Below, piece by piece: positions 52,802-61,860 of a DNA stretch of 64,000 nucleotides. The position numbers and the translations under genes were made by a program. The notes under the pieces were generated by a model, which worked only from the letters and a program-made list of their open reading frames with translations, was not told the origin of the DNA and made no database searches. Source of the stretch: an uncultured bacterium (GTDB lineage Bacteria; Zixibacteria; MSB-5A5; GN15; FEB-12); NCBI GenBank assembly GCA_965372795.1, contig CBDVDR010000001.1, positions 64,001 to 128,000 on the forward strand, read 5' to 3'. Positions within the stretch are counted from its first letter, which is position 1. The number at the start of each line of letters is the position of its first letter.

Positions 52802-54253
52802 TTACTTTTTATAATTCACATCAAGATTACGGACCGCCCCGGCTTCATCGAGTCGACGAACCGGAGTATTATAAGGCGCCGAAGTAACAATTTCGGGATT
52901 CTCAATCACTTCTTTGGCAATTTGTTTCATAATTGCGGCAAATTCATCCAGTGTTTCTTTCGATTCTGTTTCGGTCGGCTCAATCATTATAGCTTCCGGG
53001 ACAATTAACGGAAAATAAACAGTCGGTGGATGAACACCAAAATCGAGCATCCGTTTTGCCATATCAGAAGTTTTTACGCCAAGTTTTTTCTGGCGACTGC
53101 CCGACAGGACAAATTCATGCATACAGTTAGTATCATACATCAGATCAAAATCTTCACACAAAAGCACTCTCAGATAGTTAGCATTTAATACTGCGTTTTC
53201 ACTAATTCTTTTGAGTCCGTCACCTCCGCAATTTTTTATATAGGCATAAGCACGAACAATATTCCCAAAATTCCCAAAGAAAGTATGAAGTCTGCCAATA
53301 GAATCAGGTCTTTTATAATCGAATTTCAATCTACCATCATCCAATTTAACTAATACCGGAAGGGGTAGAAACTTTTCAAGTTCTTTAGTCACACCAATGG
53401 CACCGGCACCCGGTCCTCCTCCGCCATGTGGAGTTGAGAAAGTTTTATGCAGATTAAAATGCATCATGTCAAAACCAACATCACCCGGGCGGAAAATTCC
53501 CATATTGGCGTTCAAGTTGGCGCCATCCATGTACATCAAACCGCCTTTGGCATGAACGATTTCTGCAATTTCTTTGACGTGGGATTCAAATATCCCGAGT
53601 GTATTTGGATTCGTCAGCATCATTCCGGCAACATCTTCAGTCATTACTTCAGCCACAGCTTCAGGCGAGATTATCCCTTTTTCATTCGATTTAATCTGAA
53701 TCGTTGAAAATCCAATTGATGAGACCGAAGCGGGATTGGTCCCATGAGCTGAATCGGGAATAATAATTTTCTTCCTGTTTTCACCTTTAGAACGATGATA
53801 AGCCTGCATAATCAACAGTCCGGCAAATTCTCCCTGGGCTCCGGCAACCGGCTGCAATGAGACATTCGCAAATCCTGACACTTCGCCAAGATACTCAGAC
53901 AGATTATACATTAATCTTAAAATCCCGGTCGAAGCAGAGCATGGAGTCAAGGGATGATGCGTTTGAAAATTAGGGAAATTTGCAGCCGCATCATTCAACT
54001 TTGGATTGTACTTCATAGTACATGATCCCAGAGGATAAAAACCTTTGTCGATATGATGATTTTTAACAGACAGTTCGACAAAATGCCGCATGGCTTCGCC
54101 TTCGGTTACCTCCGGAAGTTCCGCATCAGTCGTTCGGCGGTAATTTTCCGGAATTAACGAAAGTAATTCTGCTTCTGTTTTAGTTGTATCCGGAAGGGTA
54201 TAACCTTTCCTCCCGGATACGGATTTTTCATAGATGAGCTGTTTATCGTTCAT
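52802..54253 (-). CDS. gcvPB: Glycine dehydrogenase subunit 2
   Basis: PLGSCTMKYNP, SAHGTNPAS, NLHKTFSTPHGGGGPG, IEPTETE. Confidence 0.97.
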   Translation of the reverse strand: MNDKQLIYEKSVSGRKGYTLPDTTKTEAELLSLIPENYRRTTDAELPEVTEGEAMRHFVELSVKNHHIDKGFYPLGSCTMKYNPKLNDAAANFPNFQTHHPLTPCSASTGILRLMYNLSEYLGEVSGFANVSLQPVAGAQGEFAGLLIMQAYHRSKGENRKKIIIPDSAHGTNPASVSSIGFSTIQIKSNEKGIISPEAVAEVMTEDVAGMMLTNPNTLGIFESHVKEIAEIVHAKGGLMYMDGANLNANMGIFRPGDVGFDMMHFNLHKTFSTPHGGGGPGAGAIGVTKELEKFLPLPVLVKLDDGRLKFDYKRPDSIGRLHTFFGNFGNIVRAYAYIKNCGGDGLKRISENAVLNANYLRVLLCEDFDLMYDTNCMHEFVLSGSRQKKLGVKTSDMAKRMLDFGVHPPTVYFPLIVPEAIMIEPTETESKETLDEFAAIMKQIAKEVIENPEIVTSAPYNTPVRRLDEAGAVRNLDVNYKK

Positions 54254-54266
54254 ATTTTATAAAAGA

Positions 54267-55139
54267 TCAACCTTCAGTCTCGGTTACGATTCCTTTTAGT
54301 TCGTTAATTTTTTTCTGAGCAAACTCAACATCTTCAGATTCCGGGTACATTTCAATAAACTTTTCAAAGCGACTGATGGCATTAGTTGTATCAGCATCTT
54401 TCATAGTTATATAAGCACCCCACACATAAGCCTGTTCAGCTTGAGGTTTAGCTTTAAATTCCTCGGCAATCTTATCATAGTTTGTAACTGCGGTTTTATA
54501 ATCTTTGGCACGGTAATAAGTGTCAGCGACAGCCATTCTACTTTCTCCGGAAAGTGAATCAAGCGGTTCGCCGGCATCAATCACCTTTGCAAACCATCCC
54601 AGAGCATCTTCCTGCCCGCCGCGATATTTATATTTTTCACCGATGTCAAAAGCCATAGTGCGGTCAAAGTTTGCTTCTATTTTTACTAATAAGTCTTCGA
54701 GGGTACCGATACCCTGTTTATAATCACGAATAGTTTGGAGGAATTCATCAACTTCCATGTATCCAACAATACGATCAATTTCATTGCCATCTTTATCAAC
54801 GAGTACAGATGTCGGATAGCCACTGATGTTATATTTGCGGGCTAACATAGAATCAACTTCAGCGTTTATTTTTGCAAGAATTACTTCGTTAGAGAAATAA
54901 TCGATAGCTTTTTGATCCCTCAATACGACCGTATCGAGGCGTTTACACCACGTTCACCAATCGGTGTAAAAATCAATAAGAATATCCCGGCTGTTTGTCT
55001 GAGCTTGATCACTTGCTTCAGTATAAGTTGCAAAAAACGGAGAACCTTTTGCAGTCTCAACTGTTTGTTCAGCAGTACATGAGATAATAAGCATTACCAT
55101 CATCAGTACTACCAATAGATTTACTAATCTTTTCATCAT
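54267..55139 (-). CDS. Probable selenoprotein: lipoprotein thioredoxin (UxxC) with C-terminal TPR domain, about 290 aa
   Basis: ORFs 54954..55139 and 54267..54923 are in frame across one TGA (54954-54956): LIDFYTDW-U-TWCKRLD; YNISGYPT cis-Pro; lipobox-like IISC; hairpin right after the TGA. Confidence 0.88.
54918..54939 (-). promoter_or_regulatory. Candidate bacterial SECIS hairpin
   Basis: CCTCGATAC-GGTC-GTATTGAGG, 9-bp stem (one G-U) with G-led loop, beginning 14 nt after the TGA. Confidence 0.75.
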
Positions 55140-55172
55140 TCCTCCTGAATAAATATTTATTTTTTATATCCG

Positions 55173-55529
55173 TTATTCTTTTTTATCAATTCTGTTTACG
55201 GGTTTCCACGATTCTCCAATTGTTATCCCCAAAATTTCTATCGCTTCATCTTTGCAGGAGAGTGGTACCGAGATTTCAAAAAGAGCTTCCTTGGGTCCGA
55301 AGATAGAATTTAAGGGTAATCCAATATTTCCGAAAAACCCCGAATTAGAAATAGAAACAGCGGGGATTTCTGAAGTTTTCAAGGATTCAATGGCAAAATC
55401 GGACGACAGTTTATCCTGAATATAACCAATGATTACCCAATCCTCAGCTTTGACCAGTTGAGTATTACATTCTGAACAGACAGAAATTTCATCTGAATAT
55501 TCTTTGTTACATTTGGGACACAACATCAT
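55173..55529 (-). CDS. Zinc-ribbon + DUF2007-like protein
   Basis: CPKC...CSEC then SLKTSEIP...EISVP...DEAIEIL. Confidence 0.7.
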   Translation of the reverse strand: MMLCPKCNKEYSDEISVCSECNTQLVKAEDWVIIGYIQDKLSSDFAIESLKTSEIPAVSISNSGFFGNIGLPLNSIFGPKEALFEISVPLSCKDEAIEILGITIGESWKPVNRIDKKE

Positions 55530-56862
55530 TCACCGGAATTTCTTTTAAACTATTTACAAACATTTGAATTTCTTCGTCGGTTCGCTTCTCAGTAGCAGCA
55601 ATAATCAGACAATTACCAATACCTTTGAACCAGCGGCTGGCATCCAAGCCGGGTAAAATTTGTTTTTCTCCCAGCGACAAAATAATTTCACGAGCCGGGA
55701 CTGGTGTTTTAACAGTAAATTCTCTTACGAAAGGTAAATCAAAGAACGGTTCGAAACCGTCAATTTTAAAAATTTCTTCAGCTAATTTATGGGCTTTCTC
55801 CATTGAAAGCAGAGCTACTTTTTTAAGACCGGATTTGCCTAACAGACTCAAATAAACCGAGGCAATAGTAGCACAAAGCGCCTGATTAGTGCAAATATTA
55901 GAAGTCGCTTTTTCTCTTCTGATGTGTTGTTCGCGAGTTTGCAAGGTTAAGACGAATCCTTTTTTACCGTCAACATCTTTGGTTCGACCGGCAATACGAC
56001 CCGGCATCTGACGGGCTAATTCCTGTTTGGCTGCAAAAAAACCAAGCAATGGTCCGCCATAAGAAACTGATATCCCAAGCGGTTGTCCTTCGCCAACAAC
56101 AATATCAGCCCCAATTTCAGCCGGTGTTTTTAATAATGCCTGAACCGTTGGATCAATTGACATTATTAATTTTCCGCCGATTTTGTGTATTAACTCTGAG
56201 GCAAAATCAACATCTTCCAAATTACCAAAGAAATTCGGCTGGCTGATAACAACGCAAGCAGTGTTTTCATCAACGACATCTTCCAAACGGGTTAAATCGG
56301 TCAGACCGTTTTTCATGGGAAGGGTAATCAGTTCGATAGGTTGTCCCGACAAATAGGTCTGAACCACCTCACGGCACAATGGACTTAGGGTTTCAGTAAT
56401 AACCGCCTTACTCCGGCGCGTTGCCTTGACTGCCATAATTATAGCTTCTGCAACTGCGCTGGCTCCATCATACATTGAAGCATTGGCAATATCCATTCCG
56501 GTCAGACGACAGATATGCGTTTGAAATTCATAGATTACTTGCAGGGTTCCCTGAGCAACTTCCGGCTGATAAGGTGTATAGGCTGTGACAAACTCAGGAC
56601 GGCTTGCAATCGTGTTTATTGCAGAAGGAATAAAATGATCATATACCCCGCCGCCGGCAAAACAGATCAATCCTTTATGATTTTCATTGGACATATCTTC
56701 AATTTCACGAAGAAGGTCCATTTCAGACAGAGCTGGAATATTTAAAGGTTTTTTTAAGCGAAGTTCATTGGGTATATTTGAAAAAAGCTCATCTACACTT
56801 TTGACACCAATCCTGTCGAGCATTTTTCTTCGATCATCATCTGTATTTGGTATGTAAGGCAT
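55507..56862 (-). CDS. gcvPA: Glycine dehydrogenase subunit 1
   Basis: YTPYQPEVAQGTLQ, NASMYDG, QTREQHIRREKATSNICTNQ. Confidence 0.97.
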   Translation of the reverse strand: MPYIPNTDDDRRKMLDRIGVKSVDELFSNIPNELRLKKPLNIPALSEMDLLREIEDMSNENHKGLICFAGGGVYDHFIPSAINTIASRPEFVTAYTPYQPEVAQGTLQVIYEFQTHICRLTGMDIANASMYDGASAVAEAIIMAVKATRRSKAVITETLSPLCREVVQTYLSGQPIELITLPMKNGLTDLTRLEDVVDENTACVVISQPNFFGNLEDVDFASELIHKIGGKLIMSIDPTVQALLKTPAEIGADIVVGEGQPLGISVSYGGPLLGFFAAKQELARQMPGRIAGRTKDVDGKKGFVLTLQTREQHIRREKATSNICTNQALCATIASVYLSLLGKSGLKKVALLSMEKAHKLAEEIFKIDGFEPFFDLPFVREFTVKTPVPAREIILSLGEKQILPGLDASRWFKGIGNCLIIAATEKRTDEEIQMFVNSLKEIPVNDVVSQM

Positions 56863-56886: not shown

Positions 56887-57264
56887 TTAATCTACTAATT
56901 CTTTATAACTGTTTGCATCAAGCAAAAGTTCAACTTCAGCAGGATTTGTTAGTTCTATTTTAATGATCCATCCATCTCCGTAAGGGTCACGATTGATAAG
57001 CATCGGGTCATCATCAAGATTAGAATTCACTTCTAATACTTTTCCCGCAAGGGGCAGATACATATCAGAGACAGCCTTAACGGCTTCAATAGTACCAAAA
57101 GCCTGCATAAGATCAAAATTATCACCAATATTCGGTAATTCTACAAAAACGATATCGCCTAATTCTCCCTGAGCGTATTCAGTAATACCTAAAGTTGCAG
57201 TATTGCCATCTATTTTCACCCATTCATGTTCTTTGGAATATTTTAAATCACCCGGTACGCTCAC
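56887..57264 (-). CDS. gcvH: Glycine cleavage system H protein
   Basis: YSKEHEWV, LGDIVFVELP, IEAVKAVS lipoyl-Lys, DPYGDGW. Confidence 0.97.
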   Translation of the reverse strand: MSVPGDLKYSKEHEWVKIDGNTATLGITEYAQGELGDIVFVELPNIGDNFDLMQAFGTIEAVKAVSDMYLPLAGKVLEVNSNLDDDPMLINRDPYGDGWIIKIELTNPAEVELLLDANSYKELVD

Positions 57265-59023: not shown

Positions 59024-60181
59024 TCAAAACTTGATAAAATCGGACTCTGAATCGGGTTCAGAAGTTTCTGATTCACTCTCTGATTCATGACCATCCGCCC
59101 ACCGATCGGAACTTCCTGTTATGCCTTTTAAGCGTAGATCAAAATCATCCGGGTTTGAGGCTTGAGTCATGGCTTCTTCAAATGAGATCATACCTTGTTT
59201 GTACAACTTCATTATTGATTGATCAAAGGTCTGCATACCATATTGAACCATGCCTTGTTCAATCAATTCAGGGATATCAACTGTTTTTTCCGGGTTAATT
59301 ATGCACTCGCGGATTGCTGCGGTATTTACCATAATCTCAAGGGCCGGAACACGACCGGGCATATCATTGCGGGAAAGCAACCTTTGACAAACGATAGCTT
59401 TGACGGTGCCTGCCAGAAGGAGACGAATTTGTTGATGTTGATGAGGAGGGAAAAATGAAATTATTCGAGTAATTGTTTCAACAACATTCATTGTGTGAAG
59501 GGTGGTCATAACCAGATGACCCGTATCCGCCGCCGTTAAAGCGATAGACATTGTTTCAATATCTCTAACCTCACCAATAAGGATAACATCAGGGTCCTGA
59601 CGAAATGCAGCTCTAAGAGCCATGGCAAATGTTTCGGTATCACCGCCAACTTCACGTTGAGAGATAATTGATTTTTTATCCCGATAGATATACTCAATAG
59701 GATCCTCAACGGTCAGAATATTCTCAGCCCTGGTTCCGTTGATTTCCTCGATTAGAGTTGCAAGCGTTGTGGATTTTCCAGAACCGGTAGTTCCGGTGAT
59801 AATAACCAGTCCGCGCCGTTCTAACGATAATTTCTTGATTGCTTCAGGAAGGTTCAAATCATCAAAGGTCGGCACGTTGGTATTGACCGCACGAATCGCA
59901 ATACCGGAAGTACCTCTTTGGCGATACAAATTAATTCTGAAACGACCCAGTTTTGCAACTGATAAAGCCAGATCCATTTCATTTTTTCTGTTGAAGCGTT
60001 CCAGCTGTTTTTCATTGAGAATTTGAGTGACAATTTTTTCGATACTTTCAATAGAAACCGGGTCGGTTGCTATCTGTTCAAGACGACCATTAACTCTCAG
60101 ATGCGGTCTGACACCGACTCTTATATGTAAATCAGAAGAATTCCGGTTCAACATTTCAACCAGCATCTGTTTTAAATTCAT
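59024..60181 (-). CDS. pilT: Type IV pilus retraction ATPase (PilT/PilU family)
   Basis: SDLHI, GTTGSGKST, EDPIEY, RQDPDVILIGEVRD, TGHLV, GMQTFDQ. Confidence 0.9.
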   Translation of the reverse strand: MNLKQMLVEMLNRNSSDLHIRVGVRPHLRVNGRLEQIATDPVSIESIEKIVTQILNEKQLERFNRKNEMDLALSVAKLGRFRINLYRQRGTSGIAIRAVNTNVPTFDDLNLPEAIKKLSLERRGLVIITGTTGSGKSTTLATLIEEINGTRAENILTVEDPIEYIYRDKKSIISQREVGGDTETFAMALRAAFRQDPDVILIGEVRDIETMSIALTAADTGHLVMTTLHTMNVVETITRIISFFPPHQHQQIRLLLAGTVKAIVCQRLLSRNDMPGRVPALEIMVNTAAIRECIINPEKTVDIPELIEQGMVQYGMQTFDQSIMKLYKQGMISFEEAMTQASNPDDFDLRLKGITGSSDRWADGHESESESETSEPDSESDFIKF

Positions 60182-60202: not shown

Positions 60203-60691
60203 TTATTCCGGTTCGATCAAAAACATTGTCTGACCGAATTCAACCGGCTTACCGTTCTCTACTAATATTTCGGCAATTCTACCTGAAACTTCAGACTCTA
60301 TTTCATTCATCAATTTCATTGCCTCAACGATGCAAACGACTTGACCGACACGAATTTTTTCATTCAGTGAAACGTACAAATCGGCATCTGGAGCCGGTGA
60401 GGAATAAAATGTTCCCACCATAGGAGAAGTGACCGGGACAAGTTTGCTGGTATCTGCTTTAGGAGCAGCCTCAGCAGGAGCTGGCGCGGCAGTTGCATGA
60501 GACTCTGCAGATACTGCAGGTGCGGTATGTACAACCGGATTCATAACAACCGAAGTTGGATTTTGACCATTGCCGGTATTTACTCCACGATGAGTTATTT
60601 TAACGGTTCTTCCCCAGCTTTTAACTTCGAGAGATTCAATATTTGATTCTTCAACTAACTTAATAAGTTTTTTTAAATATTTCTCGTTCAT
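60203..60691 (-). CDS. accB: Biotin carboxyl carrier protein
   Basis: SPMVGTFY, EAMKLMNEI biotin-Lys, Ala/Pro linker. Confidence 0.96.
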   Translation of the reverse strand: MNEKYLKKLIKLVEESNIESLEVKSWGRTVKITHRGVNTGNGQNPTSVVMNPVVHTAPAVSAESHATAAPAPAEAAPKADTSKLVPVTSPMVGTFYSSPAPDADLYVSLNEKIRVGQVVCIVEAMKLMNEIESEVSGRIAEILVENGKPVEFGQTMFLIEPE

Positions 60692-60786
60692 CAAATTCCC
60701 CAATAATTATTGAAATTAATGGCAGGGATTTTCCTGCCATTATCATATGCATATAAAAATCTGCATAAAATTATATGTTAATCGCT

Positions 60787-61860
60787 TTACAGTTCCAACA
60801 ATTTTTTTGTCGACTTGTTAAGAACTTTTCCACCAGTTTTTGTCACCAGCACATCATCCTCGATCCTTACTCCGCCCCAGCCAGAGATATAAATCCCGGG
60901 CTCAACCGTTATCACATTGTTAGGCTTGAGCTTATCTTCGGAAATTGCACTTAAGCGAGGTCCGACATGGACATAATATCCGATTCCGTGACCTGTTCCG
61001 TGACCAAAATTACTGCCATATCCGGCTTTTGTAATAATTGAGCGACAGGCTTCATCAACTTTTTTTCCAAGAACTCCGGCTTTTATTTTACGAACTCCGG
61101 CTTTTTGAGCTTTTAATACAAGATTGTAGATTTTTTTCTGACGCGAGGTTGCCTTGCCGACGACAACCGTGCGGGTCATATCTGAGACATAACCATGAAC
61201 GGTTGCTCCGAAGTCGAATGTGATGAAATCACCTTTTTTTATTTTTTTACCGGATGCGATACCATGAGGTAAGGCTGAGCGGTAGCCGGATGCAACTATT
61301 GTTTCGAATGCAGGCTTCTCAGATCCAAGCATAATCATTTGATATTCAAGTTCAGCAGCTAAATCTTTTTCTCTTATACCCGGTTCTATCATGTTCAAAA
61401 TTCGTTCGTAGGCGATATCAGCAATATCAGCTGCTTTTGAAATAAATTTGATTTCTTCTTTATCTTTCACCCAGCCGAGTTCAGTAAAAATTGAAGCCGC
61501 TTTGACAAGTAATGCATCTGGCATTGATCCCTGTAGACGTTTTTTAGCCCCAACCGTTAGATAGTCTTCATTGAACCCATATTTCAGATTTTTAGTATTT
61601 TTTTGAGTAAAATCTTTAAGGGCAAGCATAGGATCAGCTTTAACAATAGAAACTTTGGCACCACTGACTTCTTTAGCAGCTTGATCTTTATATCTAAAAT
61701 CTGTTAAGAATTGTGACCCTTTACCAGATATCACAAGCAACCCGGCAGAACCTGTAAAACCGGTTAAATATCTGATATGATCGAGATGGTTGACAACTAC
61801 TCCATCAAGGTTTTCTTTTTTAAGAAGTTTTTTTATTTCACCAATTCTTTTAACCGACAT
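60787..61860 (-). CDS. Xaa-Pro peptidase (M24)
   Basis: RYLTGFTGS, DFGA...SDMTRT, HGTGHGIG, EPGIY, GVRIEDD. Confidence 0.93.
   Translation of the reverse strand: MSVKRIGEIKKLLKKENLDGVVVNHLDHIRYLTGFTGSAGLLVISGKGSQFLTDFRYKDQAAKEVSGAKVSIVKADPMLALKDFTQKNTKNLKYGFNEDYLTVGAKKRLQGSMPDALLVKAASIFTELGWVKDKEEIKFISKAADIADIAYERILNMIEPGIREKDLAAELEYQMIMLGSEKPAFETIVASGYRSALPHGIASGKKIKKGDFITFDFGATVHGYVSDMTRTVVVGKATSRQKKIYNLVLKAQKAGVRKIKAGVLGKKVDEACRSIITKAGYGSNFGHGTGHGIGYYVHVGPRLSAISEDKLKPNNVITVEPGIYISGWGGVRIEDDVLVTKTGGKVLNKSTKKLLEL

Follow-up and report, generated by a model that had tools for sequence, protein, structure and literature searches.

A predicted exported thioredoxin-TPR selenoprotein encoded between gcvPA and gcvPB in Zixibacteria

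Gene organization of the locus

The window analyzed in the present study is the whole 64,000-nucleotide stretch of DNA from an uncultured bacterium of the phylum Zixibacteria (positions 64,001 to 128,000 of contig CBDVDR010000001.1). On its minus strand, two open reading frames, 55139-54954 (61 aa) and 54923-54267 (218 aa), are separate under translation table 11, and a single in-frame TGA at 54956-54954 bridges them in the context DFYTDW-U-TWCKRL (a W-U-T-W-C motif). A first-pass annotation, made from the letters alone, had joined the two frames through one TGA at the first Cys of a thioredoxin motif, and our translation confirmed this. The features of the locus are as follows.

54267..55139, minus strand: full coding sequence, signal peptide - thioredoxin domain (UxxC) - TPR domain; 290 codons, TGA stop at 54269-54267
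55141..55146, minus strand: Shine-Dalgarno sequence AGGAGG, 1 nt before the ATG at 55139 and 4 nt before the ATG at 55136; read directly
55077..55139, minus strand: putative lipoprotein-type signal peptide with the end I-I-S-C21; assigned by eye, LspA in genome
54954..54956, minus strand: TGA, predicted Sec62, nucleophilic position of U-T-W-C; from the codon column in 63 copies
54945..54947, minus strand: Cys65, putative resolving cysteine; invariant
54918..54939, minus strand: predicted bSECIS hairpin, 9 pairs, GGUC loop at 54930-54927; from folding and covariation
54711..55037, minus strand: thioredoxin-fold domain, about aa 35-143, invariant P109 in G-Y-P-T; from Pfam, model, and alignment
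54291..54701, minus strand: helical TPR domain, about aa 147-283, BamD/YbgF(CpoB)-like fold; from model and fold match
55173..55529, minus strand: zinc-ribbon protein, 118 aa, CxxC...CxxC; overlaps the gcvPA stop, between gcvPA and the thioredoxin-TPR gene
55507..56862, minus strand: gcvPA (context)
52802..54253, minus strand: gcvPB (context), 13 nt downstream of the thioredoxin-TPR stop
56887..57264, minus strand: gcvH (context)

The spacing of AGGAGG suits the second ATG (55136) better; a start there would give a protein of 289 aa with U61. The protein matches the Pfam families PF00085 (thioredoxin, E 8.5e-16), PF13098 (Thioredoxin_2), and PF13899 (Thioredoxin_7), and P109 in G-Y-P-T is taken, from knowledge of the fold, as the cis-Pro loop. 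The AlphaFold2 model, based on a 63-row alignment (pLDDT 94.3, pTM 0.86), consists of a thioredoxin domain and then a run of helices. The C-terminal TPRs noticed in the first pass were recovered both as a YfiO/TPR_6 Pfam match and as a helical repeat in this model.

The gene order is accC-gcvH-gcvPA-(zinc-ribbon gene, one or two copies)-thioredoxin-TPR gene-gcvPB-ABC ATPase gene-pyrR; the genes are co-oriented, with gaps of 13-33 nt or overlaps. Most relatives have one or two tandem copies of the zinc-ribbon gene, the product of which weakly matches NF049953 (zinc-ribbon (seleno)protein DG; 30.7 of 130 bits). The gcvT gene is not in the cluster and lies on contig C16. The promoter and terminator scan was uninformative, as its terminator count of 14 was close to the 11.1 of shuffles; on the coding strand, it gave no terminator-like site from gcvPA to gcvPB. 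At 59024-60181 and 60203-61860 (both on the minus strand), within this co-oriented run, a PilT-like ATPase (PF00437) stands after an M24 aminopeptidase, between an accB-like gene (assigned by eye) and accC.

Selenocysteine machinery of the genome

The proposed reading of the TGA as selenocysteine (Sec) was to be checked by a search for selA, selB, selC, and selD, and all four are present in the genome, which is 98.65% complete. The scores of selA (513.6 bits), selB (323.6), and selD (389.3) are all above the cut-offs. The selA and selB genes are adjacent on contig C19, which also carries tRNA-Sec(UCA), and selD is on contig C4.

The host selD itself carries an in-frame TGA. Further TGA candidates belong to known selenoprotein families, namely DUF3179, HesB-like, two AhpD-like, BCP-type peroxiredoxin, GSU2204, DUF1573, and HdrA. 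The candidate loci (L005 and L162-L170, including selD) are on contigs C4, C16, C27, C31, C19, C2, C7, C6, and C63. In the hairpin test, the AhpD-like candidate on C19 and HdrA on C63 were without a hairpin; the GSU2204, DUF1573, and DUF3179 candidates have signal-like N-termini. This list, obtained by a script screen and family scans, is an incomplete selenoproteome, and the first coding filter passed over both the window gene and selD. The organism clearly uses Sec, including in proteins with signal-like N-termini.

One of these loci, L167 (C7:66207-68894, minus strand), encodes a Ser/Thr kinase-TM-TPR protein of 896 aa. Close to its C-terminus, an in-frame TGA forms part of a C-H-W-U motif, and a hairpin with a GGTC loop follows the TGA at a distance of 17 nt. 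The TGA is present in 12 of the top 20 homologous loci, and all 12 have a hairpin in that register and, three residues before the TGA, a Cys. In the remaining eight loci, the site codes for Asp, Ile, Leu, or Tyr, not Cys. This kinase-TM-TPR type was absent from the examined entries of the selenoprotein catalogue table. In the case of selD from genome G022 (L081), TGT is found in place of TGA, without the stem of the other selD genes examined.

The hairpin downstream of the TGA

Folding reproduced the 9-bp GGTC-loop hairpin that had been noticed 14 nt after the TGA; it has nine pairs (eight Watson-Crick and one G-U), and its GGUC loop lies 23 nt past the codon. In comparison with shuffled sequences it is moderately unusual (z -1.7 to -2.2), and as z is only about -2, the hairpin by itself is not convincing. 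An equally stable SECIS-type hairpin occurs at just 21 of the 6133 open in-frame TGAs of the genome, and the window gene was the strongest of the 19 genome candidates after the hairpin filter and a two-sided coding filter. The consensus model for bacterial SECIS elements (bSECIS; PMC13188914) has a loop of 3-9 nt, a stem of 4-16 bp, G in the first two loop positions, a spacing of 16-37 nt, and an MFE at or below -7.5. The window hairpin agrees with this model on every point (4-nt loop, nine pairs, GG, 23 nt, and -11.0 kcal/mol); a check for a bacterial SECIS had been suggested in the first pass. A Rfam scan of 54200-55600 gave five weak matches, all under the gathering scores, and none was a SECIS. 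The SECIS of Escherichia coli fdhF has the same GGUC apical loop; however, its loop is 18 nt after the UGA rather than 23 nt, and the window stem is an unbroken run of nine pairs without the bulged U of the fdhF element.

For comparison, we used 61 genomes (the host and 60 relatives from four families of the order), each with a full-length match. These gave 63 full-length copies, as two genomes contain tandem pairs; an extra partial match in G057 was left out. A SECIS-type hairpin (at or below -4 kcal/mol) was found in 34 of the 38 copies with TGA versus five of the 25 copies with Cys (Fisher p 2.6e-8), although this value and the shuffle counts overstate the significance because the genomes are kin. 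In family f1, to which the host belongs, the GGTC loop is located 23 nt past the codon in all 25 TGA copies versus three of 14 Cys copies. The loop-forming Thr and Val codons in these TGA copies are ACG and GTC in 25 of 25 cases each, whereas their usage elsewhere in the same genes is 24% and 32%. The 7-pair stem core pairs in 99.4% of the cells in the 25 TGA sequences, as compared with 27-52% in slid controls; one pair alternates between GC and CG (13:10), which is compensatory, and none of 500 shuffles equaled the observed pairing. Family f3 has another conserved hairpin in the same register (nine of nine copies; loop CGTGAC). The four TGA copies of family f2 depart from the SECIS consensus: in three, the loop is 8 nt long and lacks an early G, and in the fourth, the stretch tested contains no hairpin. 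No hairpin was found in the distant TGA copy L150. The unlike hairpin types between families could mean separate gains or turnover.

Sec and Cys at the active site

The aligned codon in the 63 copies is TGA in 38, TGC in 17, and TGT in eight. The alignment of homologues proposed at the outset thus gave a column of Cys or TGA in 63 of 63, an invariant C/U. No frame among the 63 has another break, and their lengths range from 276 to 327 aa. The residues U/C62, C65, P109, D122, R123, T146, K169, and P266 are invariant throughout; x-W mostly stands between U/C and C in the active-site motif, and [GA]-[YF]-P-T is found at the proline loop. The thioredoxin fold, the (U/C)xxC motif, and the conserved Pro loop are those of a thioredoxin-fold oxidoreductase.

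From these sequence comparisons, the TGA at codon 62 is almost certainly read as Sec. The Sec machinery, the TGA/Cys column, and the covarying hairpin all agree with the first-pass annotation in pointing to a selenoprotein. That the TGA is instead a true stop (in a pseudogene or a split gene, or through a sequencing error) or a Trp codon is extremely improbable; the only support for this is that gene callers split the gene. Copies from three families have the same single TGA, the homologues have Cys and in no case Trp at its column, and the covarying hairpin follows it. A sequencing error cannot explain a TGA that is common to 38 of the 63 copies; a look-up of public sequencing runs listed none. 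In addition, the second break that a pseudogene might show in relatives was found in none of them. TGA is also the terminal stop codon of the window gene and, at the corresponding position, of many homologues, and tRNA-Trp(CCA) is present in the genome.

Loss of the Sec trait was considered as the origin of the Cys forms and was rejected, as selA was matched in 58 and selD in 59 of the 61 genomes. Both genes were matched in 21 of the 23 Cys-only genomes and in 35 of the 38 genomes that carry TGA; the other three, G027 (56% complete), G006 (81%), and G054 (93%), have one of the two. Because Cys versions recur in genomes that retain the Sec machinery, Sec would be a means of tuning and not a necessity. 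In a quick tree, built unrooted after masking of the site and hairpin residues, 15 state changes are needed, at least five of them forced by well-supported branches; 31 of its 60 inner branches are open, and it gives no direction of the Sec/Cys change.

The hairpin is kept in register in the Cys copies of G004, G026, G031, and G029 and also in that of G100. Remnant SECIS elements are taken as a sign of Sec-to-Cys change in the portion of a 2006 survey used here (PMC1794560), and, by the same argument, these remnants suggest recent Sec-to-Cys changes. In that portion, such changes are described as few in number and largely confined to FdhA and SelD (PMC1794560). With repeated switching while the Sec machinery is kept, and with tandem Sec and Cys copies, the family is a natural Sec-versus-Cys experiment, and its natural Sec/Cys pairs could show what Sec buys outside the cytoplasm.

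Export, distribution, and annotation

The N-terminus of the window copy consists, by eye, of MMKR, a hydrophobic stretch, and the lipobox I-I-S-C21, which provide the charged n-region, h-region, and lipobox Cys of a bacterial lipoprotein; LspA is present in the genome. A signal-peptide-like N-terminus was recognized by eye in 63 of 63 copies. About 24 of the 63 (nine of 38 Sec and 15 of 25 Cys copies) pass a loose lipobox pattern, which makes visible false calls both ways. The lipoprotein signal proposed in the first pass can thus be kept for the window copy and not as a trait of the family. Judging from these N-termini, export looks conserved and lipidation optional.

Of the 285 genomes that represent the phylum Zixibacteria, 273 gave a profile match at E 1e-35 or better, among them 195 of the 198 high-quality ones; the gene is near-universal in the phylum, in a Sec or a Cys version. 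Among 23 loci from other orders, which were partly picked for TGA and are therefore an unfair sample, 12 have TGA, nine Cys, and one Ser, and one was unread. In the phylum of a KSB1-titled record, three of 81 genomes match, one with TGA at the same site; these three loci are short and showed no match to any gcv gene.

Among the top 150 hits in a 50%-clustered protein library, 65 proteins are family-sized, and the start of 28 of these falls at profile position 62-84, which is the Sec site or beyond it. As far as protein records alone, and not their DNA, can tell, this fits gene callers restarting past the TGA. With the two table-11 frames of the window, it agrees with the expectation that standard annotation splits the gene, and the systematic error in the annotation of this gene, which nearly all members of the phylum carry, is hereby corrected.

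The slot in the glycine cleavage cluster

The gene lies between gcvPA (upstream) and gcvPB (downstream) in 54 of the 61 loci, and in the other seven a contig end truncates one side. Of the 23 loci from other orders, 16 retain both flanks, three are cut by a contig end, one has gcvPA only, and three, all with TGA, are unlinked. These unlinked copies (L150, L154, and L158) showed no tblastn match to cluster genes within about 4 kb. In the case of G089, the gcv slot (L151, C1:1673100-1682000) is occupied by an S-K-W-S copy and the TGA copy (L150) is elsewhere; G276 likewise has its TGA copy outside the slot, which is filled by a Cys copy.

Tandem duplicates stand in the slot of G016 (L030; Cys, then Sec), G018 (L047; Sec and Cys), and G095 (L147; Cys and Cys). 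In the G016 assembly (L069, G016:C3:271000-285000), accC, gcvH, and gcvPA are in several frameshifted pieces, probably because of sequencing error.

The first-pass annotation had regarded the position between gcvPA and gcvPB as unexpected. The synteny is real; however, it is phylum-wide and independent of Sec, as Cys and Ser-Ser copies hold the slot and some TGA copies sit elsewhere, and it does not point to a role in glycine cleavage. Such a role, for example in the redox maintenance of lipoyl-GcvH or of the P-protein, would account for the phylum-wide synteny with gcvH, gcvPA, and gcvPB. Glycine cleavage is cytoplasmic, whereas all 63 copies have a signal-peptide-like N-terminus (by eye), and the cluster mixes accC, an ABC ATPase gene, and pyr genes without gcvT; we consider this role very improbable. 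The Sec codon might also act as a selenium checkpoint, at which selenium shortage would cause a stop at codon 62 and polarity on gcvPB and the downstream genes; up to about 690 nt would be untranslated ahead of gcvPB, and the P-protein subunits would be unbalanced. The tight packing, the absence of any terminator-like site on the coding strand from gcvPA to gcvPB, and the constancy of the slot (54 of 61 loci, the other seven contig-cut) are consistent with this idea. It is nevertheless quite unlikely, as 25 of the 63 copies use Cys yet keep the slot, the TGA copies of G089 and G276 lie away from gcv with a Ser or a Cys copy in the slot, and in-frame codons for a restart lie downstream of the TGA (TTG at 54923). 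As an exported protein would be a poor partner for a cytoplasmic complex, we read the slot as inherited gene order; it is probably ancient synteny in a mixed housekeeping cluster and probably has nothing to do with glycine cleavage.

Predicted function

The fold neighbors of the thioredoxin domain are DsbH (Z 15.8, rmsd 2.2, 113 aligned), T. thermophilus thioredoxin 2lst (Z 15.1), B. thetaiotaomicron 2kuc (Z 14.9), and DsbD-gamma (Z 14.6), and these Z values (14.6-15.8) are effectively tied. The helical part is nearest in fold to BamD and YbgF/CpoB (Z 17.5 and 16.3). At whole length, the top Foldseek matches are YbbN/CnoX proteins only, with 12-14% identity and TM of about 0.3. The genome encodes a full three-domain DsbD of 632 aa. 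The part of PMC5193440 used here describes DsbH as an oxidoreductase of the periplasm with a reducing role.

On balance, we favor an envelope enzyme fed by DsbD for the reduction or repair of disulfides, in which Sec would serve as a faster nucleophile and the TPR domain as a dock for clients or a partner. A reductase, rather than an oxidase or an isomerase, is the most likely, as judged only from fold neighbors at 16-30% identity. Almost certainly, SelB-tRNA(Sec) binds the GGUC hairpin and inserts Sec at codon 62. The protein would be exported and, in the host genome, lipid-anchored at Cys21, as its N-terminal sequence suggests. By analogy with thioredoxin chemistry, Sec62 would attack and Cys65 would resolve via a selenenyl-sulfide cycle. 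The three-domain DsbD of the genome would keep the protein reduced, so that disulfides of envelope proteins may be reduced or repaired, and the TPR domain may dock clients or a partner complex.

In the main alternative account, the protein would be an extracytoplasmic 'chaperedoxin', with CnoX as its convergent cytoplasmic counterpart and with chaperoning as its core job. Unfolded envelope proteins would be held by the TPR domain, and their cysteines would be protected or reshuffled through mixed selenenyl-sulfides with Sec62. The domain order and size are as in CnoX, and the top Foldseek match is E. coli YbbN/CnoX 3qou (E 1.7e-8); however, this match is loose (14% identity, TM 0.31, rmsd 22) and reflects shared domain types only, and TPR_20 (PF14561) was not found in a search of the genome for which the E. 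coli and Caulobacter controls were positive. The BamD/CpoB-like TPR fold, the invariant or near-invariant residues in the helical part (K169, R173, and P266), and the presence of the gene in nearly all genomes of the phylum (273 of 285) would suit a chaperone, and the Ser-Ser copy kept in the G089 slot hints at a non-redox role; on the other hand, the 63 copies without exception have U/C and C at the two active-site positions, as for a true oxidoreductase. We regard chaperoning as the core job as a rather unlikely possibility. Equally tentative is the fuller proposal of a phylum-core exported selenium 'chaperedoxin' that combines client holding with Sec-catalyzed envelope disulfide repair. If true, it would be an envelope version of a job so far described only for the cytoplasmic, Cys-based CnoX.

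Comparison with known systems

The window protein shares with CnoX/YbbN an N-terminal thioredoxin domain, a C-terminal TPR domain, and a length of about 280-290 aa, and some of its database homologues are automatically named 'thioredoxin-like negative regulator of GroEL'. In contrast to the cytoplasmic CnoX, it is predicted to be exported, it uses Sec, and its TPR is of the BamD/CpoB type. PF14561, which we take to be the CnoX-type TPR, was absent from the Pfam matches of the window protein and among 25 of the 34 families listed for the 63 members. Identity with CnoX was rejected because of the signal-like N-terminus in all 63 copies and the lack of PF14561 (no matches in the genome search). 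CnoX passes its clients to cytoplasmic GroEL/DnaK, according to the part of PMC8129009 used here. BamD was also rejected (TIGR03302, 49.8 of 81.4 bits; thioredoxin domain present), and a separate BamD over the TIGR03302 cut-off is encoded on contig C29.

The reductase reading, which we prefer, relates the protein to DsbH, DsbD-gamma, and 2kuc. These are the closest structural and profile matches of its thioredoxin domain and, unlike the window protein, they are without TPR. None of the 21 matched NCBIfam families reached its cut-off; the best was TsoB (66 of 805 bits), and DsbH (46 of 190 bits) and DsbD (60 of 330) were below theirs. The catalogued UxxC thioredoxin/PF13098 selenoproteins have the same Pfam domains (63 of 63 members match both), UxxC, and a downstream bSECIS. 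The window protein differs from that PF13098 UxxC family in its TPR tail and export signal, a distinction drawn by the catalogue description only.

The exported thioredoxin-TPR selenoprotein was absent from the 119-entry table of the 2026 catalogue and from NCBIfam. The review of catalogued selenoproteins contains no occurrence of TPR, tetratricopeptide, lipoprotein, periplasm, or signal peptide, and the main text and four supplements of deep-Sep (PMC12013277) contain no TPR terms. In the mostly open-access literature on Zixibacteria selenoproteins or selenocysteine and on thioredoxin-TPR selenoproteins or periplasmic thioredoxin-TPR lipoproteins, the family was not described.

SaoB, SaoC, and SaoX are exported bacterial selenoproteins, as described in the part of bioRxiv 10.1101/2022.07.06.499078 used here. 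With the GSU2204 family (NF041027), they establish Sec in secreted or lipoprotein-type proteins, and their folds are unrelated to that of the window protein. UxxC thioredoxins and exported selenoproteins are thus both known; the exported thioredoxin-TPR form, which was not found in the catalogues searched, would be a novel architecture of a familiar enzyme type and would add to the selenoprotein architectures beyond the 2026 catalogue and NCBIfam.
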